Below are positions 483 to 56,049 of a stretch of DNA of 64,000 bases, piece after piece; the stretch's first letter is position 1; each line of letters opens with the position of its first letter. The stretch spans positions 1,684,400 through 1,748,399 of the forward strand of contig CAVTOI010000003.1 of assembly GCA_963736255.1 (NCBI GenBank), read 5' to 3'. This DNA is from Candidatus Aminicenantes bacterium (GTDB taxonomy: Bacteria; Acidobacteriota; Aminicenantia; Aminicenantales; Saccharicenantaceae). The notes below the pieces were generated by a model that searched no databases, was not told the DNA's origin, and saw only the letters and a program-made list of their open reading frames with translations. Both the position numbers and the translations under genes were made by a program.

Positions 483-1901
483 TCAATCGAAGATCTTGCC
501 CGGGTTCATGATCCCGTGAGGGTCGAAGACGCGCTTGATGCCGCGCATGATCTCGATCTGCCGGTCGTCCAGGACGACCGAGAGGTAGGGCTTCTTGACC
601 AGCCCGATGCCGTGCTCGCCCGAGATGACCCCGCCGCGCGCCTTGCAGTCCCGGAAAAGCTCCTCGCGGATGCGGTCGGCGTGGGGCCGCCACTCGCTCT
701 CCGGGACGGGGACCATCGTCCCGCTCTCATAACGGGCCTTCATGATGTGGGTATGGACGTTCCCGTCGGCGGCGTGACCGAACGTCGGCAGCCACATGCC
801 GTACCGGGCCGCGACCTCACGGACCTTGTGGACGTGGCCGGCCACTTCGGCCCGGGGCACGGCGATGTCCAGGATCTCGACCGTGCCGGACTTGATGGCG
901 TCGTAGATCTTGGAGCGGATGGCCAGCACCTCGTCCTGCTTGCTGGGGGTGTCGGCGATGAAAACGTCGATGGCGCCCTTTTCGACGCAGACCTCCGCCA
1001 CGGCTTGGGACAAGCGGTCCATCTCGTCGTCCGAAGGGGCGTCGAGGATGATCAGGAGGTGGGTTTTGCCGAGCTTCGTCGGCCACTTCTTGTGGATGTG
1101 CTCCTCGGTCAAGGTGATGGGCTCGATCTCGAGGAACTCGACGGCGAGGGGGACGATGCCCCGCTTCATAATGAGGGGGACGGTCTCGAGGGCCGGCTCG
1201 AGCGCTTCGAAGGGCACAACGAGCGAGCGCATGTTGCCGGGCCTGGCCTGGAGATGCAGGACGACTTTCGTGACGACGCCGAGGGTCCCCTCCGAGCCGA
1301 CGACGAGGTGCATCAAGTTGTACCCGGTGCTCGATTTCTCGAGCTTGCCCCCCAGCCACAAGACGTCTCCCGTCGGGGTGACAAGCTCGAGCCCGCGGAC
1401 GTAGTTGCGGATGGTGCCATACTTGACGGCCCGGCTGCCCCCGGCGTTGGTGGCAACGAGGCCGCCCATCATGGCGCTTTCGTCGCCGGGGTGGGGCGGG
1501 AAGTAGAGCCCCCCCTCTTCGACCGCCTTGGTAAAATCGGAAAGGCGGACGCCGGCCTCGGTCACGGCCATCTGATTGTCGGCGTCGATCTCGAGGACAC
1601 GGCTCATCCTCTCGAGCGAGAGGACGATGCCGCCGCAGACCGGAACGCACCCGCCGCAGAGGCCCGTCGCACCGCCCCTCGGGGTCACCGGGACGCCTTG
1701 GGCATCCGCGATCCTGAGCACGGCGGCGACCTCGGCGGTCGTCCCCGGGCGGACGACCACGTCAGGCTGCCGGGCGATCTCCGCGAGCGAGAACTCGTCG
1801 TGGCCGTAATCGAAGGTCCTGTCGGCGTCGGAAAAGACGTGGCCGGGACCGACGGCCCCTTCGAGAGCGGCGCGGACGGCGGGCGTGATCTTCGAGGCCA
1901 T
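483..1901 (-). CDS. glcD: FAD-linked oxidase of the GlcD / D-lactate dehydrogenase family
   Basis: 472-aa ORF with an FAD-binding PCMH-type N-terminus (GGATGLCGG) and the C-terminal FAD-oxidase domain ending ...RVFDPHGIMNPGKIF, which is typical of GlcD/Dld. Confidence 0.85.
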   Translation of the reverse strand: MASKITPAVRAALEGAVGPGHVFSDADRTFDYGHDEFSLAEIARQPDVVVRPGTTAEVAAVLRIADAQGVPVTPRGGATGLCGGCVPVCGGIVLSLERMSRVLEIDADNQMAVTEAGVRLSDFTKAVEEGGLYFPPHPGDESAMMGGLVATNAGGSRAVKYGTIRNYVRGLELVTPTGDVLWLGGKLEKSSTGYNLMHLVVGSEGTLGVVTKVVLHLQARPGNMRSLVVPFEALEPALETVPLIMKRGIVPLAVEFLEIEPITLTEEHIHKKWPTKLGKTHLLIILDAPSDDEMDRLSQAVAEVCVEKGAIDVFIADTPSKQDEVLAIRSKIYDAIKSGTVEILDIAVPRAEVAGHVHKVREVAARYGMWLPTFGHAADGNVHTHIMKARYESGTMVPVPESEWRPHADRIREELFRDCKARGGVISGEHGIGLVKKPYLSVVLDDRQIEIMRGIKRVFDPHGIMNPGKIFD

Positions 1902-29034: not shown

Positions 29035-31386
29035 CTATCTCTCGATGGCCTCGACGGCCCCCATGAGCTTCACCGTCCCTTTGATAACGGGACCGTCCCC
29101 GGCGAACCTGGCCTCGATAGCGACCGAATGTTTCCCTTTCTTCAGGAGCGGCAGGCCCGTACCGATGGATACGTCCTCGATCTTCCGGCCCTTCTCGTCG
29201 TAAATGATCATACGATCCGATCCGTCCCAGACCAGGGATTGCCCCTTGTTCAGCGTCGCAGGGACACTGATCTTGAAGAAGCGATCGACCTCGATCTCGA
29301 TCCTTTGGGCTTGAGAATCTGCCCCTCCCGTCAGCAGGAGATGGAGGTGCAGAGGCTGAGGGCCGGAGGCGTTCTCGAAGGGCCATTCCGATTGGGCCGG
29401 CTGTCCCGGCTGCAGGACTTTTCTGGTGTGCTCGAAGCGGAATTGCTCGTAACTCTGCAGGGTCCACCGGTTCTTTTCATGCCTCTCAAGGTGGAAGTCC
29501 TTCTCGGGATCTTTCAGCCGGGTCCTCTGTTCGTCGCTGAAGATGCCCAGCCGCTTGGCCTCTTCCCAAGTCCTGATGGAGGCGATGATGGCGTCCGTGT
29601 CGGGGTTCTTCTCGAAGGCCTCGGGATCGGCGACGAAAGCGTAGCCGGCCCGATAGCCCGCGGCCCGGGCCAGCATCCATTCGATGTCCTCGAGCCGTGT
29701 GTCGGGCGTCATGAGGAACCAGCCGAGCATGTTGGGCAGGTAGTTGCGCTCGAGGAACGGCTGGTGCTTGAACCGCTGCTCGGACTGGCTCTCCCGGAAG
29801 CTCGCGTACCACGGCTCGCCCCAGTTGATATAGCTGTTGGCATGCCAATAGAAGTGACCGATGTTGCTCGAGCCGTTGACGACCAGGTGATCGACCTGTG
29901 ACAGGAAGGCCTCGACGAAATGATCGTGGCCGTAGTCTCCACGGCCCAGGTAGCAGGTTCCCTCGTGGCCGTCGAAGTCCATGTGGGAGACCCCGGTCTC
30001 GTTGAAGAGTGCGGCCAGGTTCCGGATGAGCTCCTCCTGCATGGGCCAATCGGGGAACAAGGTCTTGTACGGGTGATCCATGAGCTTCTTGGCCGGGTCG
30101 CCCTTGGCGTGGGCCGCCGCGGCTGTCCCGAAAGCCCCCCGGACGCAGTTCGTCAGGGCCCAGGGCCCGCTCCCGGTCACGTCCTGATAACGGATGATCT
30201 CGGCGCCGATAAGCAGGCTGCTGAGGGTCGATCCCTGCCGGAAATAATCTTCGCGGTCCACGACGATCTCGGTCGCCGCGGCGTCGATGTCCTTCTGAAG
30301 CGTGGCGATACCCGCGGCCATCAGCCCCTTGTTGGCCGTGGTCGTCACGAAGGGGTCGTTCGTGGTGATGAAATTCGTCAGCGTATGGACCCCTATCCGG
30401 ATGCCCTTGGCCCGGGCCTTGTCCACGCATAGCTTCATCCCGGCCCTGCCGTTGGGGAACAGGTCCTCCATGAGGTCGAAGTGGCCCCAGGTCTTGAACG
30501 GTCCGCTATGGTAGAGCGAATAAAATCCCAGGCGCCGGGCATATTCCAGCATCTCGTCGACATTCTTTTCGCCGAAATTGGCGATGAGATAGGGCCGGCC
30601 CGTCGCGCCGGAGGTCTTGATCCATTCACCGTCGATCATGGGGTGCGGCAGGCCTTCGGCCAGCTCGATCCTGCCGATCAAGGGCAGCGCGTCGGCCGGA
30701 GCGGAGCCGAAAACGGCCAGGGCGCTCCCCTCCAGGCTGAATCCAGGCAAGGCCTTGACCGGCACTTTCTTGTGCTGCTGCCAGACCGTCATGACCCGGT
30801 CCCTGGCCTGGTTGACGCAGAAGGCCTGGAGGCTCGAGCCGGACCCCTCCTTGGTGGCCGTTGTCATTCCCCCCGTCGTGCCTTCCTCGTTGACCAGCCT
30901 GCCGCCGCACGTTTTCGAATTCAGGGTCTGGATGCCGATGGCGAAATCGGCGTTCCGGACGACTCCGACCACCTCTCCGACGGTCTCGTCGATCGTCGTC
31001 AAGATCGGGCCCCACAAGACCGCGTCGATCTTCTCGGGGTAGGCCACGTCGATTAGCTCAAAACGCAGGTATTCGGGCTTCTGGGCGGCCCGGACCGTGA
31101 GCTCGATCCCGCCATCAAAAGCGAAGGTCAACAGGCCTTTTGTGGCTTTGAACGCCGTCGGCAGGATCTCGGCGCCACCGATGCTCTTGACCCGGACGAG
31201 ATAACCGGGATGGCCATCGGGCGCGTAGTTCCGCTGGCCCTTCAGATCGGCCAGCTTGACGATCTCTCCGCGGCCGTTGATCTCCATGGCGAAACCCGGC
31301 GTCGTGTAGACATGCTGGGCCTGCGCGGCAGCGCTCAGGCCAAGGCCGCAGATGATGGCGATGAGCTGTTTTCTTCTCACGTTCAT
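29035..31386 (-). CDS. large secreted protein of unknown function, possibly a glycoside-hydrolase-like TIM barrel
   Basis: Signal peptide MNVRRKQLIAIICGLGLSAAAQA; 783 aa; it sits in a glycan-degradation neighbourhood. Confidence 0.65.
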   Translation of the reverse strand: MNVRRKQLIAIICGLGLSAAAQAQHVYTTPGFAMEINGRGEIVKLADLKGQRNYAPDGHPGYLVRVKSIGGAEILPTAFKATKGLLTFAFDGGIELTVRAAQKPEYLRFELIDVAYPEKIDAVLWGPILTTIDETVGEVVGVVRNADFAIGIQTLNSKTCGGRLVNEEGTTGGMTTATKEGSGSSLQAFCVNQARDRVMTVWQQHKKVPVKALPGFSLEGSALAVFGSAPADALPLIGRIELAEGLPHPMIDGEWIKTSGATGRPYLIANFGEKNVDEMLEYARRLGFYSLYHSGPFKTWGHFDLMEDLFPNGRAGMKLCVDKARAKGIRIGVHTLTNFITTNDPFVTTTANKGLMAAGIATLQKDIDAAATEIVVDREDYFRQGSTLSSLLIGAEIIRYQDVTGSGPWALTNCVRGAFGTAAAAHAKGDPAKKLMDHPYKTLFPDWPMQEELIRNLAALFNETGVSHMDFDGHEGTCYLGRGDYGHDHFVEAFLSQVDHLVVNGSSNIGHFYWHANSYINWGEPWYASFRESQSEQRFKHQPFLERNYLPNMLGWFLMTPDTRLEDIEWMLARAAGYRAGYAFVADPEAFEKNPDTDAIIASIRTWEEAKRLGIFSDEQRTRLKDPEKDFHLERHEKNRWTLQSYEQFRFEHTRKVLQPGQPAQSEWPFENASGPQPLHLHLLLTGGADSQAQRIEIEVDRFFKISVPATLNKGQSLVWDGSDRMIIYDEKGRKIEDVSIGTGLPLLKKGKHSVAIEARFAGDGPVIKGTVKLMGAVEAIER

Positions 31387-31531
31387 GTTCCTCGGACTCC
31401 CGGCCTGACCGCTCGTTTTGCGGCCTTCGGCCTTTCGTTCCGTCCGTGATGTTATCATAATCGCCCCGGCTGTCCGGACCCCTTTTTTGACAAGGATTTT
31501 CGTTCTGAATTATCATAGGCCCCGATCGATC

Positions 31532-32719
31532 ATGGATATCAACGCCAGAATCGCCAAGGCCGTCGAAGATCGCCGGACCGAGATCCTCGAGCTGAGCCGC
31601 AAGATCCACGCCGACCCCGAGCTTGCCTTCGAAGAGGTACGGACATCGCGCCTGCTCCAAGCGGTCCTTCTGGCCGAGGGCTTCGACCTCTCCCCCGCCT
31701 CCGAAGGGCTGCCGACCTCGTTCCGGGCCGTATTCGGTCCCTCTCCAAACGGTCCCCGGGTGACGTTCACGGCCGAGATGGACGCTCTCCCTGGCCTGGG
31801 GCACGCCTGCGGCCACAACATCATCGGCACGGCCGGGACCTATGCCGCCATCGTCCTGAAATCCGTCCTGGGTTGCGATATCCCCGGGACGATCGAGGTC
31901 GTCGGGACTCCGGCCGAGGAGCGCGGCAGCGGCAAGGTCCGCATGATCCAGGACGGGATCTTCTCCCGATCGGACGTCGTTCTCCAGATCCACCCCCACT
32001 CGATAGACACCGTCATCGGCCAGGCGCTGGCCCGGCGCTCGCTCATCGTCGAGTTCTTCGGCCAGAAGGCCCACGCCGCGGCCGCGCCCCTCCAGGGCCG
32101 GAACGCCCTCGACGCCCTGGTCCTCTTCTATCATTCGGCCGCCCTGCCGCGGACAAAATTCCCGGCGGGAACCCTCTTTCACGGCATCATCGAATCGGGC
32201 GGCGAGGCGCCGAACATCATCCCGGATTACGCCCGCGGCCGGTTCTCCCTTCGCTCCGACACCATGTCCAAGCTCGGGAGCCTCGTCGCCGAGGTCAGGC
32301 GCCTCGCCGAAAGGGCCGCTGAAGAAACCGGATGTCGAGCCAAGATCAGCGAGCCCGGGCCCGGGGTAACGACCTTCCGCCGCAACCGTGTCCTCGAAGA
32401 GATCTTCGCCCCGCTGTTCGTGGAACGGGGCCGGTCCGATCCGGCAAAAGTCCGGGAGACCTACGGCTCGACGGATCTGGCCAATGTCTCCTGGGTCGTC
32501 CCGACGATCGAGCCGATGATCAAGGCCAGCGACTTCCCCATCCACACCGAGGGCTTCGCCCGCGATGCCATAGCGGCCGGCGGCGAGAAGGCCCTCCTCG
32601 ACGGCGTCTACTTCCTGGCCGCCGCGGCGGCCCGCATCCTGACCGGGCCCCCCCTCCTCGAGCGCGTCCGCGCGGATTTCCGGGCCAAGGTAGAGGACGC
32701 CCCGGAAGGGACCGCCTGA
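31532..32719 (+). CDS. M20-family amidohydrolase/peptidase (M20D, aminoacylase or hippurate-hydrolase-like)
   Basis: MDINARIAKAV...; metal ligands HACGHN...E..G; a TTGACA promoter-like box at 31487. Confidence 0.85.
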   Translation: MDINARIAKAVEDRRTEILELSRKIHADPELAFEEVRTSRLLQAVLLAEGFDLSPASEGLPTSFRAVFGPSPNGPRVTFTAEMDALPGLGHACGHNIIGTAGTYAAIVLKSVLGCDIPGTIEVVGTPAEERGSGKVRMIQDGIFSRSDVVLQIHPHSIDTVIGQALARRSLIVEFFGQKAHAAAAPLQGRNALDALVLFYHSAALPRTKFPAGTLFHGIIESGGEAPNIIPDYARGRFSLRSDTMSKLGSLVAEVRRLAERAAEETGCRAKISEPGPGVTTFRRNRVLEEIFAPLFVERGRSDPAKVRETYGSTDLANVSWVVPTIEPMIKASDFPIHTEGFARDAIAAGGEKALLDGVYFLAAAAARILTGPPLLERVRADFRAKVEDAPEGTA

Positions 32720-32732
32720 GGCCTCCGTCCCC

Positions 32733-33650
32733 ATGAGAAGCCTCCTCGATTTCGGCAGGAAGTCCGGCGCGGTCACCGTCGTGATCACGGATTCGGGCCT
32801 CGGCGGCCTCCTCGTCTGCGCCGACCTCGACCGCCGGCTGCGGGAGACCGCCGGGGAAGGCAGCGTCCGCCTCATCTACGTCAACGCCTGGCCTGACGCC
32901 CACCATGGCTACAACGACCTGCCCGATCTCGCCGCACGCGCCGCGGTCTTCGACGGGGCGCTGGCCGCGATGACGGCCTTTCATCCCGACTTCGTCCTCA
33001 TCGCCTGCAACACGCTGTCGGTGATCTACGAGGCCACGGCCTTCAGCCGGGCCCCCGGCGTCCCCGTGACAGGCATTCTGGAAGCCGGCACCGAGCTTTT
33101 CTTCGAGGCCCTGGCCCGGGACCCCGATGGCGTCCTGGCACTGTTCGGGACACGGACGACCATCGGTTCGGGCGAGCACGTCCGGAGGCTGGCCGAGAGG
33201 GGTATCGAGCCGAAGCGGATCGTCGCCGAGCCGTGCCACGGCCTGGCCGCGGTCATCGACAAGGACCCCGATTCTCCGCTGATCCCGGGCCTCGTCGATG
33301 AGTGCGTCCTTCGGGCCGCGCCGAGGCTCCCGACCGCGGCGCTACTCTATGCCGGGCTCGCCTGCACCCATTACGCCTACGTCGCCGAGGCATTCCGGAC
33401 GGCGCTTTGCCGGCACACCGGAGCGGAGATCGAGATCCTCGACCCCGGCCGGCGTCTTGTCGAAGTCCTCATGAGTGGGATCGGCCATCGGCGGACTGTC
33501 AGCGGAGACAGGGACATCGCCGTCGAGGTCGTCTCCAAAGTCGATCTGCCGGAGGCCCAACGGCAGGCCGTGGCGCGGCGCATCGAACCCGTCTCGGCCA
33601 CGACGGCCCGCGCCTTGCTCGAATACCGCCGGATACACGATCTTTTCTGA
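32733..33650 (+). CDS. Asp/Glu racemase-family protein (MurI-like glutamate racemase paralogue)
   Basis: DSGLGGL N-motif with paired catalytic Cys motifs ACNTLS and ACTHY. Confidence 0.75.
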   Translation: MRSLLDFGRKSGAVTVVITDSGLGGLLVCADLDRRLRETAGEGSVRLIYVNAWPDAHHGYNDLPDLAARAAVFDGALAAMTAFHPDFVLIACNTLSVIYEATAFSRAPGVPVTGILEAGTELFFEALARDPDGVLALFGTRTTIGSGEHVRRLAERGIEPKRIVAEPCHGLAAVIDKDPDSPLIPGLVDECVLRAAPRLPTAALLYAGLACTHYAYVAEAFRTALCRHTGAEIEILDPGRRLVEVLMSGIGHRRTVSGDRDIAVEVVSKVDLPEAQRQAVARRIEPVSATTARALLEYRRIHDLF

Positions 33651-47736: not shown

Positions 47737-48714
47737 TTAGCGCCCTTCCGGAGCGGGCCGGAGGACCGCATCGGCGGGCAGGCCCGGCTTGAGCAGCCCG
47801 TCCTTGTTCCCGATCTCGACCTTGACCCCGAAGACGAGCTTGACCCGGTCCTCCTTCGTCTGGACATTCTTGGGCGTGAACTCGGCCTCGGGCGAGATGT
47901 AGGTGATCTGGCCCTCGAAGGGCCTGTCGGGGAAAGCATCGATCCTGATCTCGGCCGTGTCACCGAGCCGGACGCGTCCGAGCTCCTTCTCGGTGACATA
48001 GATCATGACGTAGACGCTGTCAAGGTCGGCCAGGGTGAGGATGGTCGACCCGGGCGTCACCAGCTCGCCCGCCTCGAAGGCTTTGTGGGTGACGATGCCG
48101 CCGGCGGGGGCCGTGACGGTCGAGTCGGCGATCGTCTTGGCCAGGAGATCGGCCCCGGCCCGGGACTGGGCCAGTCGGGCTTCGGCAGCCTGGATCTCCT
48201 CAGGCCGGGCCAGCCGGCGGACCTTGCTCAGCGCTTCGGCGGCGCCGCTCTGCTGGGCCGTGGCGACAGTGAGCCGGGCCTCGGCGTCATCGCGCTGCTT
48301 CGACGTCACGCTCCCCGTCGCGAAGAGCTCGCGCATCCGGCGGGCGTCGTCCGCGGCGGTCTTGAAGGCCGAATCGGCCTGCTTCAGCGCGGCTTCCGCC
48401 TGCCGGATGTCCTCGCTCCTCGCCCCTTTGACGAGGAGGGCCAGCTGGGCTTCGGCCAGACGGACGCCGGCCTCGGCTTGACGGAGCTGGATGTCGGCCG
48501 TCGCGTGATCGACCGTGGCCAGGATATCCCCGGGCTTGACCCTCGCCCCTTCATCGACGGCGAGCGTGAGGAGCTGGCCCGCGACCTTGGAGGCGACGTT
48601 GACCTCGACCGCCTCGATCGTTCCCGATGCCGTGATGACGGCCTTCTCCGACGGGGAGGAGCAGGCCAGGCCCGCTGCGGCGACAAGCGCGAGCGCCGCG
48701 ATCTTCATTCTCAT
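47737..48714 (-). CDS. HlyD-family periplasmic adaptor (membrane fusion protein)
   Basis: Lipoprotein-like signal (LACSS), coiled-coil and barrel-sandwich hybrid domains. Confidence 0.85.
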   Translation of the reverse strand: MRMKIAALALVAAAGLACSSPSEKAVITASGTIEAVEVNVASKVAGQLLTLAVDEGARVKPGDILATVDHATADIQLRQAEAGVRLAEAQLALLVKGARSEDIRQAEAALKQADSAFKTAADDARRMRELFATGSVTSKQRDDAEARLTVATAQQSGAAEALSKVRRLARPEEIQAAEARLAQSRAGADLLAKTIADSTVTAPAGGIVTHKAFEAGELVTPGSTILTLADLDSVYVMIYVTEKELGRVRLGDTAEIRIDAFPDRPFEGQITYISPEAEFTPKNVQTKEDRVKLVFGVKVEIGNKDGLLKPGLPADAVLRPAPEGR

Positions 48715-49397
48715 GACGCGCCCTCCTTTCGGGGCTCGAACAGGCCCGGGGTGCCGGACGAAAAATCGAGACGCCCCTTGTCCGTCAGCACGCCCTGGAA
48801 AAAGACCTTGATGACCGATTCGAACGTTTCGGTGGGGGTCCGCCCCGAGCGGAGCATCTCCGCGGGACTGACGAAGCCCTCGACGAGACGGATGAACATC
48901 GCCACCATCAGATCGTCGTCGACATCGCCCCGGAAAAGCCCCTGCTTATGGCCGTCCGCCAGGAAGGTCTTGAAGTTCGTGAGGAGCTTGTCGCGGCGGA
49001 AGTCCTCGATCTCGCGCCAGATCTCCGGGGCGCTCTTCTGGATGTCGCGAAAGAACACCGGGCCGAGCAGGGAGAGGCGGCCGCCGACGAACGCGAACAG
49101 CGCGACCAGTCTCTCGACAAGGCTCTGCTCCTCGTTTTCGATGATCGCGTCGACGCGGGCGACGATCTCGGCCATGAGGCCGCGGACGACCGCCCTGAGG
49201 ATGTCCTCCTTGCCGGCGAATTCCTTGTAGAGCGTGGCCTTGCTGACGCCGATCTCCGCGGCGATGTCGTCGGCCGTCACCCGGACGAAACCCCGGCTCA
49301 GGAACAGCCCCCGGGCCGCCTCGACGATGCGCGGCCGGAGCAGGGACCGCGCGGGGGCTTCCTGCTTTGAAACTATGGAAACTCTTTTGGTTTTCAC
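48711..49397 (-). CDS. TetR/AcrR-family transcriptional regulator
   Basis: HTH FVRVTADDIAAEIGVSKATLYKEF. The start may be a GTG inside the operator palindrome, so the 5' end is uncertain. Confidence 0.8.
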   Translation of the reverse strand: MKTKRVSIVSKQEAPARSLLRPRIVEAARGLFLSRGFVRVTADDIAAEIGVSKATLYKEFAGKEDILRAVVRGLMAEIVARVDAIIENEEQSLVERLVALFAFVGGRLSLLGPVFFRDIQKSAPEIWREIEDFRRDKLLTNFKTFLADGHKQGLFRGDVDDDLMVAMFIRLVEGFVSPAEMLRSGRTPTETFESVIKVFFQGVLTDKGRLDFSSGTPGLFEPRKEGAS

Positions 49398-49402
49398 AGT
49401 TT
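49370..49402. promoter_or_regulatory. probable TetR operator, imperfect palindrome AAACTATGGAAAC-N7-GTTTTCACAGTTT, next to a TATAAT box
   Basis: The two 13-nt half-sites match at 11 of 13 positions as reverse complements and overlap the 5' end of the tetR-efflux operon. Confidence 0.5.
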
Positions 49403-49494
49403 TATTATAGGCCCGGATCGCCCTTTGTCAAGCGCGTTCCCCATCCCGGTATCGACGGCCCGATCTGGTCCTGTGCTATCATGATGTCACCTCG

Positions 49495-51571: not shown

Positions 51572-52159
51572 TTAGAAGACCCGGAACTCGAGACCTCCGA
51601 GCACCTGGAAGCCGCCCAGATTGATGCTCGCGTCGGGAAGGGAACTCTCCCCGGTGCGGATGGATTCGAAGCTCCCCGAACAAAACAATGAGACCCGCTT
51701 GAGAACGGCCGCGGAGACGGCGAGAACGATCCGCGGCGATATCTTATGTCCTCCGAAATCGAGATCGACCGTCTGCCAGGTCTCCCGGTATCTGTGGATG
51801 CCGGCTCCCGCCCCGAGTCGGATCGCGACGGGTCCGGCGTCGATCTGATAGAAAACAAGGAGGGGGATGGACGTCCGCCAGAATTCCACCGCGTACGTTT
51901 CCGTGCCCCCGTCCATGGGCTCCGCGACGCCCTTATCGGCCGTCCGGCCGAAGCCGGCGGCGAACCCGATGGGGCCCTTGAGCTTGAGCCAGAGGTCCCC
52001 GGCGAGCGACAGGCTCGATCCGTAGATCTCGCGGTAAGCGCCCTCCGAGGGGAAGAAGACTCCGGCCCCGAAGGATACCGACAGCTCCTGCGCGGGCGCG
52101 GCAGCGGCCAGGCCCCCCACGAAGAGAACCAATCCTGCCGCGAGGCAGCCGGCCTTCAC
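51572..52159 (-). CDS. small outer-membrane beta-barrel protein
   Basis: A GTG start overlapping the upstream stop (GTGA) gives a signal peptide (VKAGCLAAGLVLFVGGLAAAAPA). Amphipathic strands and a C-terminal ...GGLEFRVF. Confidence 0.55.
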   Translation of the reverse strand: MKAGCLAAGLVLFVGGLAAAAPAQELSVSFGAGVFFPSEGAYREIYGSSLSLAGDLWLKLKGPIGFAAGFGRTADKGVAEPMDGGTETYAVEFWRTSIPLLVFYQIDAGPVAIRLGAGAGIHRYRETWQTVDLDFGGHKISPRIVLAVSAAVLKRVSLFCSGSFESIRTGESSLPDASINLGGFQVLGGLEFRVF

Positions 52160-53916
52160 CGGATGCCTCTCAAGACCGGGAAACTGAAGATCGGGACGGC
52201 CAATGACGCCCCTATCGAGGCGGAGCGTGTCGCCGGCCGATCCAGGCGTGCGGCCATCCATTCAGCGTCGCGCGAACGATTGCTCTCGAGCCCCGCCGGG
52301 CCCACGGCCGTGACGGCGTAGGAAAATGTCGGTTCCGACCCGGCATTCGTGTCGGAGAAGGCCGTCCCGGTCACGGGCGTCGTATTGATCTTGACGTAAC
52401 CGAGATGAGGGGTGTTCGTCCTATAGATATTGTAGCTTGTCGCGTCCGTTTGCGCCGTCCAATGCAGCCGGACGGTGTGCAGGGAGTTGAAGAGCGATCT
52501 GTAGACGAACAAGTCGGCGTAGAGGCCGACCGGCGTCCGGGGGTAGCCGTCCTTGATCGGCTGGGCCAGCTCGGCGAGGAGCCCGACGGAGGCCCGCGTG
52601 GCACTGGTGAGGAAGTCGAGGTTGAGCGTGTCGAGCGTATCGGTCGTCCGATGGTAATAGGGATTGGTCAGGGGATTGTCCTCGATGGCCAGTAGGGCCG
52701 GATAGCCGTTGTCCCAGAAGGGCGAGTGATCGGAGTAGACGAACGACTGATCCACGGTCTTCGTCGCCCCGACAACGCCGTAATGCGCGCCGGCGGCCAG
52801 GAAGAGATCGGCCAGCCAGGTCGAGTTGCCGTTGACGATGATCTGGAGGTCTTCGGGCATGGCATCCGCATAGCCGATCATGTCCAGGTTAATGACGCCG
52901 AGGATGTGCTGGCCGCCCAGACGGGCATATCCGGCGTAGGCCCGGCTCCCCCAGAGCCCCCATTCCTCGGCCGAAAAGGCGATGAAGCGGACGGTGTAAT
53001 CCAGCGGATAGGGCGCCAGGACCCGGGCCGCCTCGAGGACCGCAGCTGTGCCGCTGGCGTTATCGTCGGCCCCGGGGGCCAGCGTCAGCCGCGATGGGGA
53101 CGTCGAGTCATAGTGCGAACAGATGATGTAGACGTCGTTCGGGTAGGTCTCGCCCCTCTTTTCGGCGACGACGTTGCGCGATGTATTAGAGCCGGAGAAC
53201 GTGAACGGCTCGAAACGGACATTGTCGAGGCCGAGGGCCGAGAACGCGGCGAAGAGGGCCTCGCCGGCGGCTTCGCAGTTCGTCGTCGAAGCGTAGCGCG
53301 TCTGGAAATCCTGGAGGGTCTGGACGCCGGCGGCCAGGTTGGAGCTCGAAACGAGAGAGACGATCGTCTCGACGAGCGGGTCCTGGGCTGAGGTCGTGTC
53401 CGGGGCAGGAGCGACGGCGGTGCGCGTCCGGACATACGGAAGAACAGAACGGGGCGGGAGGGCCTTGCGCGGCAGACCGGCCGGTACGGCTTCCAGAGCG
53501 CTCCCCTCCTCGGTCCAAAAGACGGCCGTCGAGGGCTCCACGGCCGCGGCGTGGCCGGCGGCGCGGAGGGAGGCCAGGGCGCCCGGAGCGGCGATCCCGA
53601 CGACGAGAAACTCGCGCCGGGCCGCGTTCCGATCGAGGACCGTGAAGCGCACGCCGTTCCGGCGCAGGAGGTCGATATCGTCCCTATCGGCAAAGGCCAG
53701 CAGGCAGGTGGTCAACTCCTGCCGGACGTCGATCTGGAGCCGAGTCAGGAGCTGAATAGGCAGGGCCGGGGTCTTGGCGATGCGGATGAGGGCGAGCGAT
53801 CCGCCGCTTCCCGGGGCGGCCGACCCGGACGTCTCGGACGACGCGACCGGAAGGCCCGCGGCGATGACGAGGCCGCAGACCAGGATGACCGGAAGGACGG
53901 ACCCTGAATGCCTCAT
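52156..53916 (-). CDS. M28-family peptidase with a C-terminal Fn3/Ig-like domain
   Basis: Signal peptide; Zn ligands in HYDS...DDNASG...EEWGLWGS...H. Confidence 0.8.
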   Translation of the reverse strand: MRHSGSVLPVILVCGLVIAAGLPVASSETSGSAAPGSGGSLALIRIAKTPALPIQLLTRLQIDVRQELTTCLLAFADRDDIDLLRRNGVRFTVLDRNAARREFLVVGIAAPGALASLRAAGHAAAVEPSTAVFWTEEGSALEAVPAGLPRKALPPRSVLPYVRTRTAVAPAPDTTSAQDPLVETIVSLVSSSNLAAGVQTLQDFQTRYASTTNCEAAGEALFAAFSALGLDNVRFEPFTFSGSNTSRNVVAEKRGETYPNDVYIICSHYDSTSPSRLTLAPGADDNASGTAAVLEAARVLAPYPLDYTVRFIAFSAEEWGLWGSRAYAGYARLGGQHILGVINLDMIGYADAMPEDLQIIVNGNSTWLADLFLAAGAHYGVVGATKTVDQSFVYSDHSPFWDNGYPALLAIEDNPLTNPYYHRTTDTLDTLNLDFLTSATRASVGLLAELAQPIKDGYPRTPVGLYADLFVYRSLFNSLHTVRLHWTAQTDATSYNIYRTNTPHLGYVKINTTPVTGTAFSDTNAGSEPTFSYAVTAVGPAGLESNRSRDAEWMAARLDRPATRSASIGASLAVPIFSFPVLRGIR

Positions 53917-54484: not shown

Positions 54485-54513
54485 TTGACAAAGCCGGCGG
54501 CGGGGCTTATGAT
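54485..54513 (+). promoter_or_regulatory. consensus sigma70 promoter (TTGACA, 17-nt spacer, TATGAT) driving the trp leader and trpB2
   Basis: TTGACA at 54485-54490 and TATGAT at 54508-54513. Confidence 0.65.
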
Positions 54514-54522
54514 GCTTCGGAA

Positions 54523-54609
54523 ATGGACAGCTTGAAGGATCCTCGCGTCACCGCCGTCGTGCTGTCCTCTTGGCTTTGGAACTGGTGGGCGGTCCCAACC
54601 GCCCGATAA
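54523..54609 (+). CDS. Trp-rich leader peptide MDSLKDPRVTAVVLSSWLWNWWAVPTAR (attenuation-type)
   Basis: The ATG lies ~10 nt after the -10 box. Four Trp codons fall within six codons. GC-rich alternative hairpins (GGGCGGTCCCAACCGCCC, CGGGCTTTGACGCGCCCG) follow, before the trpB2 RBS AAAGGA. Confidence 0.55.
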   Translation: MDSLKDPRVTAVVLSSWLWNWWAVPTAR

Positions 54610-54756
54610 GACCGTTCCCCCCGCCCATTCCCTTTCTTGGGACAGGTGCGCTCGCCCGCCTTGTGATCATCGCCGGGCTTTGACGCGCCCGCCCCGAAAG
54701 CCCAGGCCCCCCGCCGGCGACGACGGGGCTGAAGTCATGAAAGGACATTGACCATC

Positions 54757-56049
54757 ATGCGATTCGCATCGAGAAAACCGGAATTCCTCCCCCGGGCCTT
54801 CTACAACATCAAGGCCGATCTCCCCTCTCCGCCCAAGCCACCCCTTCATCCGGGGACGAAAGAACCCCTCAAGCCCGAGGACCTCGAGCCCATTTTCCCC
54901 AAGAGCTTCATCCGCCAGGGGGGCGAGACGGCCCGCGAGATCCCCATCCCCGGGCCCGTCCTCGAGGCCTTCGAGATCTTCCGGCCGACGCCGCTCATCG
55001 AGGCCACCGCCCTGCGGAAGGCGCTCGACACGCCGGCCCGCATCTTCTACAAGTACGAGGGGGTCGGCCCGGTCGGCAGCCACAAGACGAACACGGCCGT
55101 CATGCAGGCTTATCTCGCGGCCCAGGACGGCGTCAGGACGCTGGCCACGGAAACGGGCGCCGGTCAGTGGGGCTCCGCTCTGGCCTATGCCGGCTCGCGC
55201 TTCGGCATCGAAACGAAGATCTTCATGGTCCGCTCGAGCTTCCGGCAGAAGCCCGGACGCCGCGTCATCATGGAGATGTTCGGCGGCACGGTCCTCGAAA
55301 GCCCGAGCCCGACGACGGACGCCGGCCGCAAGTTCTACGATCAGGACCACGATCACCCCGGCAGCCTCGGCATCGCCATCGCCGAGGCGGTCGAGCTCAC
55401 GGTCAAGACCCCCGGCGTCAAGTACGCCCTGGGCTCGGTCCTCGACAGCGTCCTCATGCACCAGACGGTCATCGGGCTCGAGGCCGAAAAGCAGATGGAG
55501 GAGATGGGAGCCGTCCCCGACACGGTCATCGGCTGCGTCGGCGGCGGCTCGAACTTCGCCGGGCTGGCCTTCCCGTTCGTCCGGCATGATCTCGCAGGCG
55601 AAAGAAAGACGCGCTTCATCGCCGTCGAGCCGGAGGCCTGTCCCTCGCTGACGCGGGGCAAGCTGTGCTACGACTTCGGCGACAGCGTCGGGATGACCCC
55701 TCTCCTCTACATGCACACGCTGGGCATGGACTTCGTGCCGCCGCCGCTTCACGCCGGGGGCTTGCGCTACCACGGCATGGCCCCGCTCGTCAGCCACCTT
55801 GCAGACATGGGGATCGTGGAGGCGCGGGCGGTCGACGAGAAGACCGTCTTCGAACGGGCCGTCCTGTTCATGAAGACGGAAGGCATCCTGCCGGCCCCTG
55901 AATCCTCCCACGCCATCTCCGTCGCCGTCGACGAGGCCCTGGCGGCGAAAAGGGACGGGCGCGCGCGGACGATCCTCTTCAATCTGAGCGGACACGGCTT
56001 CCTCGACATCAGCGCCTACGCCCGGAACGGCCAAGGCGGGAAGACTTAG
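54757..56049 (+). CDS. trpB: TrpB2-type tryptophan synthase beta-like PLP enzyme
   Basis: Long TrpB2 N-extension (FYNIKADLPSPPKPPLHPGT...RPTPL...) and the PLP-lysine region GSHKTNTA. Confidence 0.85.
   Translation: MRFASRKPEFLPRAFYNIKADLPSPPKPPLHPGTKEPLKPEDLEPIFPKSFIRQGGETAREIPIPGPVLEAFEIFRPTPLIEATALRKALDTPARIFYKYEGVGPVGSHKTNTAVMQAYLAAQDGVRTLATETGAGQWGSALAYAGSRFGIETKIFMVRSSFRQKPGRRVIMEMFGGTVLESPSPTTDAGRKFYDQDHDHPGSLGIAIAEAVELTVKTPGVKYALGSVLDSVLMHQTVIGLEAEKQMEEMGAVPDTVIGCVGGGSNFAGLAFPFVRHDLAGERKTRFIAVEPEACPSLTRGKLCYDFGDSVGMTPLLYMHTLGMDFVPPPLHAGGLRYHGMAPLVSHLADMGIVEARAVDEKTVFERAVLFMKTEGILPAPESSHAISVAVDEALAAKRDGRARTILFNLSGHGFLDISAYARNGQGGKT

Follow-up and report, generated by a model that had tools for sequence, protein, structure and literature searches.

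The trpB2 locus and its promoter

In the window, by which we mean the whole 64-kb stretch of Candidatus Aminicenantes DNA analysed here, a gene for a TrpB-like PLP enzyme lies downstream of a leader containing a promoter, a short ORF rich in Trp codons and several hairpins (Table 1). The gene product scored 641.7 bits with the TrpB2 model NF009057 (cutoff 366) and 598.7 bits with TIGR01415 (cutoff 518.85), but only 139.5 bits with the TrpB1 model TIGR00263 (cutoff 392.45). These scores are above the TrpB2 equivalog cutoffs and below the TrpB1 cutoff, and the gene is thus assigned by sequence to TrpB2. Its neighbours in the window encode a deaminase, an M28 peptidase and a beta-lactamase-family protein, none of which is tied to Trp metabolism. 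The description of the gene as a stand-alone TrpB2 in an earlier note on this DNA is therefore borne out by both its scores and its surroundings. At the related loci, the genes flanking trpB2 change from clade to clade and are frequently convergent, which leaves trpB2 as the sole plausible target of the leader; the unit consists of the leader and trpB2 alone.

The earlier note had also pointed to a near-perfect sigma-70 promoter. In the promoter scan of the window, this site matched 11 of the 12 consensus positions of the two hexamers and was the sole promoter-like site between 53.5 and 56.5 kb, where 0.3 sites were expected, in agreement with that claim. The pattern TTGACA-N17-TAnnnT was found at the equivalent position in 47 of 53 related loci.

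Table 1. Features of the trpB2 leader and gene, with positions in the window
Feature	Position	Strand	Remarks
Sigma-70-type promoter	54485..54513	+	TTGACA 54485-54490, 17-nt spacer, TATGAT 54508-54513; 11/12 consensus
Leader ORF MDSLKDPRVTAVVLSSWLWNWWAVPTAR	54523..54609	+	28 codons and TAA; ATG 9 nt past the -10 hexamer; predicted transcription start near 54520-54522
P1 hairpin inside the leader ORF	54525..54567	+	GGACAGC 54525-54531 / GCUGUCC 54561-54567; 7 pairs, two with compensatory changes
Candidate anti-SD UGUCCU	54563..54568	+	Complementary to AGGACA 54742-54747; 3-8 nt 5' of the first Trp codon
Four regulatory Trp codons (TGG)	54571..54588	+	At 54571, 54577, 54583 and 54586; 1-4 Trp codons in relatives, always W-A at the hairpin
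P2 hairpin	54587..54604	+	GGGCGG 54587-54592, loop UCCCAA, CCGCCC 54599-54604; from comparison of 51 sequences
Leader stop codon TAA	54607..54609	+	2 nt past P2; position kept in relatives
Spacer	54610..54741	+	C > G; second CCGCCC 54621-54626, P3 UCCC/GGGA 54629-54642, GC-rich variable hairpins
trpB2 Shine-Dalgarno (SD) AGGACA	54742..54747	+	Within GAAAGGACA; GAAAGGA invariant in the clade
trpB2	54757..56049	+	TrpB-like PLP enzyme, 430 aa, regulated gene; family models; N-terminus agrees with homologues

A Trp-rich leader ORF with a predicted leaderless start

The 28-codon ORF, with four Trp codons in six positions, was found as the earlier note had described it, at a distance of 148 nt from trpB2. 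A run of six codons with at least four TGG occurs only once in the six frames of the 64-kb window (simulated mean 0.09). Since the ATG lies only 9 nt past the -10 hexamer, which leaves no room for an SD, the ORF is probably translated from a leaderless 5' end, and the promoter geometry would place the transcript start at the ATG or 1-3 nt before it. In 43 of 44 related leaders, 5-10 nt separate the -10 hexamer from the ATG. Furthermore, among the 47 loci with a recognisable promoter, the first ATG located 3-13 nt past the -10 hexamer was in frame with the hairpin-fused Trp codon in 45, where chance alone would give one third, and the leader frame remains open through its 23-45 codons even in AT-rich genomes.

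Two further sites in the window combine a promoter-like sequence with a closely spaced start codon. On the minus strand (49397-49431), TTGACA-16-TATAAT is followed by a GTG 6 nt past the -10 hexamer (ORF 48711-49397), and on the plus strand (31487-31534), TTGACA-18-TATCAT is followed by an ATG 15 nt past the -10 hexamer, without an SD. Messenger RNAs that are leaderless or have only a very short leader may be frequent in this organism.

Conservation of the leader in Aminicenantes

The closest relatives of the TrpB2 protein (65-98% identity) all come from Candidatus Aminicenantes metagenome-assembled genomes and from metagenomes. A W-rich micro-ORF was present at every Aminicenantes-type trpB2 locus for which upstream DNA was available, corresponding to about 50 non-redundant loci, so the comparison with related genomes upholds the micro-ORF proposed in the earlier note. 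The cassette was found at none of about 100 trpB2 loci from other phyla (<63% identity), where the matches to W-rich micro-ORFs upstream of the gene were sporadic and not conserved.

The layout of the leader was drawn from 44 non-redundant leaders, and that of P2 from 51 distinct sequences. The order of the elements is a consensus promoter, a leaderless-type ATG, 20-45 codons ending in W(x)WW-A, the hairpin GGGCGG-N6-CCGCC(C), the stop codon, a G-depleted spacer and the trpB2 SD. The 44 leaders contain one to four Trp codons, the last of which is always followed by Ala and has its TGG fused to the hairpin. The stop codon either comes 3 nt or 0 nt past the GGGCGG-N-CCGCC motif, at most 2 nt beyond the P2 stem, or falls in the P2 loop. 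A stretch of 63-171 nt, with the SD close to its end, separates the hairpin from the trpB2 start codon, and some of the related leaders are only about 140 nt long. The N-terminal part of the leader peptide is free to vary, and the tail after WWA is also variable (AVPTAR, AASPAR, APSRAL, AGPSA or AA); the stop codon may even follow WWAA directly. To judge from these alignments, it is the reading frame, the Trp codons and the RNA hairpin that are conserved, with no conserved arrest peptide.

The leader at L009:2839-2997 has a single Trp codon (MLTQEGQAIHRDLSCLLRGCWAGSPAL) and retains P2; it also has the best predicted match of all between the stretch preceding the Trp codon and the trpB2 SD, with nine contiguous pairs (CCUCCUUCG with CGAAGGAGG). 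A search for additional copies of the W-hairpin motif in the window and in the flanks of 160 loci returned only chance or coding matches, and a match at locus L133 was rejected as an extra copy because it falls inside an upstream gene. Two 586-aa ORFs of the window (31115-32875 and 52156-53916) were considered as possible paralogues and found not to be paralogous.

Several other elements were observed upstream of trpB2 in relatives. At loci L013, L014 and L016, a long tandem-heptamer inverted repeat (CGTAATT.../...AATCACG) is present about 150-300 nt upstream of trpB2, and L015 has in the equivalent place a repeat of different sequence with the same symmetry (TAGACGT.../...ACGTCTA). In these four loci, the repeat is flanked by the trpB2 promoter on one side and, on the other, by an upstream gene ending ...YFKKKNWL, and may correspond to a structured element or an unusual terminator. 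Two complete Aminicenantes chromosomes have a tRNA gene about 1.3 kb ahead of trpB2, and one of them, at locus L010, also gave an int-alpA RNA match (40.7 bits, gathering score 35.8), which hints at an integration hot spot nearby; these features map to L010:1436-1502 and 1661-1733 (minus strand) and to L009:1610-1682.

Hairpins and folding of the leader

P1 lies entirely within the leader ORF, and other clades have at the equivalent position a hairpin of different sequence (for example ACGUGUGC/GCACACGU in L007). P2 begins within the last Trp codon, its first two G residues being the final two bases of that codon. All 51 distinct sequences retain its six core pairs, three of them with a GC-to-CG compensatory change in one pair, whereas the loop varies freely; the sequence of the stem is more invariant than stability alone demands. 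A pyrimidine-G pause dinucleotide was noted by eye 7-10 nt past P2 in about 60% of the sequences, and was set aside as not decisive.

In the window's clade, the consensus fold consists of P1, P2, P3, a variable insert closed by P4 (five compensatory cells) and P5 just before the SD, the only long-range contact being a 3-bp UCC:GGA pairing. Taken as a whole, the leader has an unremarkable fold energy (z = -1.31). The earlier note had described several mutually exclusive GC-rich hairpins before trpB2; this was not confirmed, as the downstream hairpins are mutually compatible in the consensus fold, and the only mutually exclusive pair found was the 5' hairpin P1 and the pairing of the anti-SD with the SD.

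Two additional observations concern the spacer. The second CCGCCC of the window, which could pair with the GGGCGG of P2, is located 17 nt past the P2 3' arm within a CCCCCCGCCC run, and is only partly conserved within the clade. Directly 5' of the trpB2 SD, a hairpin ACGACG-loop-CGUCGU is conserved in the window's clade (columns 226-252 of alignment A1, corresponding to about 54704-54735 of the window). Its loop (GGGAAAGA) is SD-like in several relatives, and the window's own copy is degenerate.

Predicted pairing of the trpB2 Shine-Dalgarno sequence

The candidate anti-SD of the window overlaps the 3' arm of P1, whose other strand, the 5' arm AUGGACAGC, resembles AAGGACA of the SD region. The free RNA is predicted to leave the SD open at equilibrium (0.94 unpaired), since P1 is favoured over the anti-SD:SD helix by about 4.6 kcal/mol. 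When the 5' 18 nt were masked, at a cost of 4.6 kcal/mol, the SD changed from 0.94 to 0.12 unpaired, and the probability of its pairing with the anti-SD was 0.88. Across the window's clade, the anti-SD:SD helix is paired in 89% of cells and shows no compensatory change. SD sequestration is thus possible in the window, but only conditionally; it could hinge on whether a ribosome occupies the 5' end, or on the kinetics of folding.

Equilibrium folding of the 44 leaders predicted that the SD core is paired with the 25 nt immediately preceding the Trp cluster (P > 0.5) in 22 of them; in 13 leaders the SD was predicted to pair with the spacer instead. A mask representing a stalled ribosome raised the mean accessibility of the SD from 0.23 to 0.32 (Wilcoxon p = 0.007). 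However, only the SD core responded, and the accessibility of the whole initiation region showed no consistent shift under ribosome masks in equilibrium folding. In the L015/L114 group (relatives of L013-L016), the masks had no effect.

The predicted duplexes end at or include the first TGG and track the lineage-specific flanks of the SD. Thus, CCUUUUCUGG pairs with CCAGAAAAGG and CUGCUGUG with CACAGCAAGG, in addition to the L009 duplex mentioned above, and further lineages combine UUUCCUCCUGG with CAGGAGGAAA and CUGUCCU with AGGACAG. The pairing was better than in shuffles of the same locus (p < 0.05) for 11 of the 44 loci, 2.2 being expected. Pairing of each SD with its own pre-Trp stretch was also better than pairing between loci, with values as low in only 1 of 5000 permutations, or in 29 of 5000 when the permutations were confined to GC quartiles; by contrast, a per-locus test of own pairing against pairing with other loci was not significant (p = 0.27). 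The best-pairing window along the leader was the pre-Trp one in 19 of the 44 loci (about 7 expected). The translational attenuation by sequestration of the ribosome binding site that the earlier note had considered is therefore supported in part: for about half of the loci, folding predicts a helix abutting the Trp codons that would sequester the SD, but the SD of the window itself is predicted to be open at equilibrium.

Terminators, RNA families and composition of the spacer

No hairpin followed by a U tract was found on the plus strand in the window, and terminator-like hairpins were detected in only 2 of the 44 related leaders, at unrelated positions. The earlier observation that no U-tract terminator is visible thus holds in the window, and canonical terminators are absent from 42 of the 44 leaders. 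Three 20-kb scans of window positions 1-60000 yielded 12, 11 and 13 terminator-like sites, against 11.2, 10.5 and 12.2 in shuffled controls, which suggests that this organism relies little on canonical intrinsic terminators. For this reason, the missing U tract says little about transcriptional control in general.

An Rfam search of the window with E values up to 10 gave only a spurious miRNA match, with no hit to the T-box (RF00230) or to Trp_leader (RF00513), and at gathering thresholds nothing matched the leader in the window or in 19 related loci. The covariance-model check suggested in the earlier note accordingly leaves the leader claimed by neither a T-box nor any other known family. 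A reading of the UGG run as a T-box was dropped in the absence of a T-box match, and a G-quadruplex reading was also dropped, as the short forms have too few G runs.

The first 60 nt of the spacer in the window have a G content of 0.23 and a C content of 0.40. Across the 44 loci, the spacer contains 0.18 G, compared with 0.30 for the surrounding locus (p = 1e-13), and 0.34 C, compared with 0.31; it is depleted in G and richer in C than in G in every one of them. In the GC-rich clade, the spacer is folded into hairpins. This composition would fit a site for Rho loading, and would fit equally well a spacer that leaves the pyrimidine-rich anti-SD with no partner other than the SD.

Proposed mechanism

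The conserved micro-ORF, the preservation of its frame in all but two of the loci with a recognisable promoter and the lack of a match to a known RNA family support the earlier proposal of a ribosome-mediated attenuator sensing charged tRNA-Trp. We consider that the element is very probably an attenuator sensing Trp codons. That it responds to charged tRNA-Trp and controls monocistronic trpB2 mainly at the level of translation, through pairing of the SD, seems to us probable, though by no means secure. As for the output taken separately, we lean only slightly towards the SD sequestration predicted by folding as the main one.

According to this model, a 70S ribosome would load on the 5' end of the leaderless transcript. 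If Trp-tRNA were plentiful, the ribosome would pass the Trp codons, unwind P2, terminate at the stop codon just behind it and leave; the pyrimidine-rich anti-SD 5' of the Trp codons would then pair with the trpB2 SD, resulting in low trpB2 translation. If Trp-tRNA were scarce, the ribosome would stall on the Trp codons with its footprint over the anti-SD and the 5' arm of P2, so that the SD would stay open and TrpB2 would be made. The untranslated trpB2 RNA behind the C-rich, G-poor spacer might perhaps also be cut short by Rho. The weakest step concerns the window's clade, in which the anti-SD doubles as the 3' arm of P1, and the off state would therefore require either an occupied P1 5' arm or a kinetic trap.

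P2, the most conserved part of the leader, has no necessary role in this model. Our best guess, by analogy, is that it may act as an RNA polymerase pause hairpin resembling hairpin 1:2 of the trp leader, or as an insulator hairpin, tying the decision to the first ribosome; the likeness to the trpL hairpin is one of placement, the Trp codons falling within the 5' arm of P2 or beside it. More speculatively, P2 and the leaderless start could together form a new decision module located only on stand-alone trpB2, in which P2 would pause the RNA polymerase until a single 5'-loaded 70S ribosome reached the Trp codons. The outcome, an anti-SD:SD lock or an open SD, would then be decided co-transcriptionally and only once for each transcript, without a terminator. 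We propose this tentatively and regard it as rather doubtful at present.

Alternative explanations

The same Trp-sensing leader might regulate premature termination, by Rho or another factor, in the C-rich, G-poor spacer, with SD pairing being secondary. The spacer composition, which is rut-like from right past the leader stop codon in all 44 loci, is consistent with this possibility, as are the lack of an excess of intrinsic terminators in the genome, from which factor-dependent termination is probably common, and the absence of equilibrium sequestration of the SD in the window. The same idea has been put forward for terminator-less Cys leaders (Seliverstov 2005, PMC1262725). However, a ribosome stalled at the Trp codons would sit 5' of the spacer and expose it as much as a released ribosome would, and we found no ribosome-dependent means of hiding the rut site. 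The shorter spacers (47-60 nt) are also marginal for Rho loading, and the G depletion is equally explained by keeping the pyrimidine-rich anti-SD free of competitors. Termination as the regulated step is therefore unlikely in our view, although it deserves more weight than the three explanations that follow. A classical attenuator of the trp operon type, with terminator and antiterminator hairpins and an intrinsic terminator before trpB2, would fit the tandem Trp codons found in the short leader ORF; in the window, GGGCGG has two possible CCGCCC partners (54599-54604 and 54621-54626), and many relatives have U-rich runs 15-30 nt past P2. Nevertheless, a stem with a U tract is absent from the window and present in only 2 of the 44 leaders, the U runs adjoin no stem, and Trp_leader gave no Rfam match. 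Pairing of the P2 GGGCGG with the second CCGCCC as a terminator was rejected, since this second copy is not maintained even among members of the clade and adjoins no U tract. We thus consider a classical attenuator highly improbable.

If the ORF were untranslated, the conserved UGGUGGGCGG...CCGCCC hairpin and the pyrimidine tracts might constitute a riboswitch, a T-box-like tRNA sensor or a protein-binding RNA, and the invariance of the P2 stem beyond the needs of stability, together with the lack of conservation of the N-terminal peptide sequence, would be understandable. This is nonetheless very unlikely, given an ATG at a fixed distance from the -10 hexamer and in frame with TGG in 45 of 47 loci, a frame that stays open for 23-45 codons in AT-rich genomes as elsewhere, a stop codon always in or within 2 nt past the P2 stem, and no match to a T-box or any other Rfam family at E values up to 10. 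Alternatively, a TnaC-like arrest peptide might sense free L-Trp and stall the ribosome at the stop codon, for which the conserved position of the stop codon relative to P2 and the C-rich tract directly past it, as in tnaC, could be invoked. However, the C-terminal tail varies, down to one residue after WWA, and the stop codon may follow WWAA directly or fall within the loop of P2; the count of Trp codons likewise ranges from one to four. The leader peptides have neither conserved residues comparable to W12, D16 and P24 of TnaC nor a fixed distance to the stop codon, and it would make little physiological sense for free Trp to induce a Trp-forming enzyme. An arrest peptide is accordingly the explanation to which we attach the least credence.

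Relationship to known attenuators

The closest known systems are the leaderless attenuators of the mycobacterial Ms5788A type, and the element is not a member of the trpL family. Ms5788A is a leaderless polycysteine sORF of M. smegmatis (Canestrari et al., bioRxiv 10.1101/834739; Shell et al. 2015, PMC4633059) in which base pairing joins the codon tract to the SD; compensatory mutagenesis established translational attenuation, and translational regulation with polarity on the downstream genes was described (bioRxiv 10.1101/834739). Both systems have a leaderless sORF as the first cistron (predicted in the case of Aminicenantes), a run of codons for the pathway amino acid near its 3' end, and a codon tract or flank that pairs with the SD of the next gene (here predicted, in 22 of 44 relatives). 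Both also lack an intrinsic terminator, and the proposal for both is that stalling of a ribosome on the run of codons releases the SD. However, Ms5788A senses Cys, whereas the Aminicenantes leader, which belongs to another phylum, would sense Trp, with a single stand-alone trpB2 as its target. The Aminicenantes leader does not form one long duplex, and its anti-SD has, in the window's clade, a second pairing partner in the 5' end of the RNA. The invariant GC hairpin fused to the last regulatory codon has no counterpart in the Ms5788A description consulted here.

With E. coli trpL (RF00513) and the actinobacterial trp attenuators (Seliverstov et al. 2005, PMC1262725), the leader shares a short ORF with tandem UGG codons, codons embedded in the 5' arm of a hairpin analogous to hairpin 1:2 of trpL, and a logical coupling of expression to tRNA-Trp charging. 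It differs from them in having no U-tract terminator, no antiterminator, no SD of its own (its start being predicted to be leaderless) and no covariance-model match, and in regulating trpB2 rather than trpE or a trp operon. In the erm and cat leader peptides, which act by translational attenuation and have their own SD, stalling results from a drug and the nascent peptide in the exit tunnel and not from a shortage of charged tRNA. The tnaC-tnaA system, which is Rho-dependent and senses free Trp, resembles the Aminicenantes leader in its Trp-linked leader peptide, its C-rich tract by the stop codon and its lack of an intrinsic terminator. However, TnaC is a conserved peptide that senses free Trp at the stop codon, whereas the tail of the Aminicenantes peptide is variable and the codon run would be the sensing unit. 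Our literature search found no published description of this trpB2 leader element.

Implications for stand-alone TrpB2

The predicted leaderless attenuator would extend amino acid-sensing leaderless sORFs beyond the Cys genes of mycobacteria, to a different phylum and a different amino acid, and suggests that this design may be general in bacteria in which leaderless mRNAs are numerous and intrinsic terminators scarce. Classical models do not predict an invariant hairpin joined to the regulatory codons, a feature that is easily testable. The roughly 50 aligned examples could also seed an Rfam or uORF family for the annotation of Aminicenantes metagenome-assembled genomes.

The physiological role of stand-alone TrpB2 is debated, and its selective function has been described as 'not identified yet' (Merkl 2007, PMC1854888). 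The presence of a Trp-codon sensor before the gene throughout the lineage argues that TrpB2 is wanted when charged tRNA-Trp is short, which would fit a role in Trp supply or in indole salvage. Should the decision module proposed above prove to be true, it would provide the first regulatory evidence that orphan TrpB2 serves tryptophan supply in vivo, since the module is located only on stand-alone trpB2.
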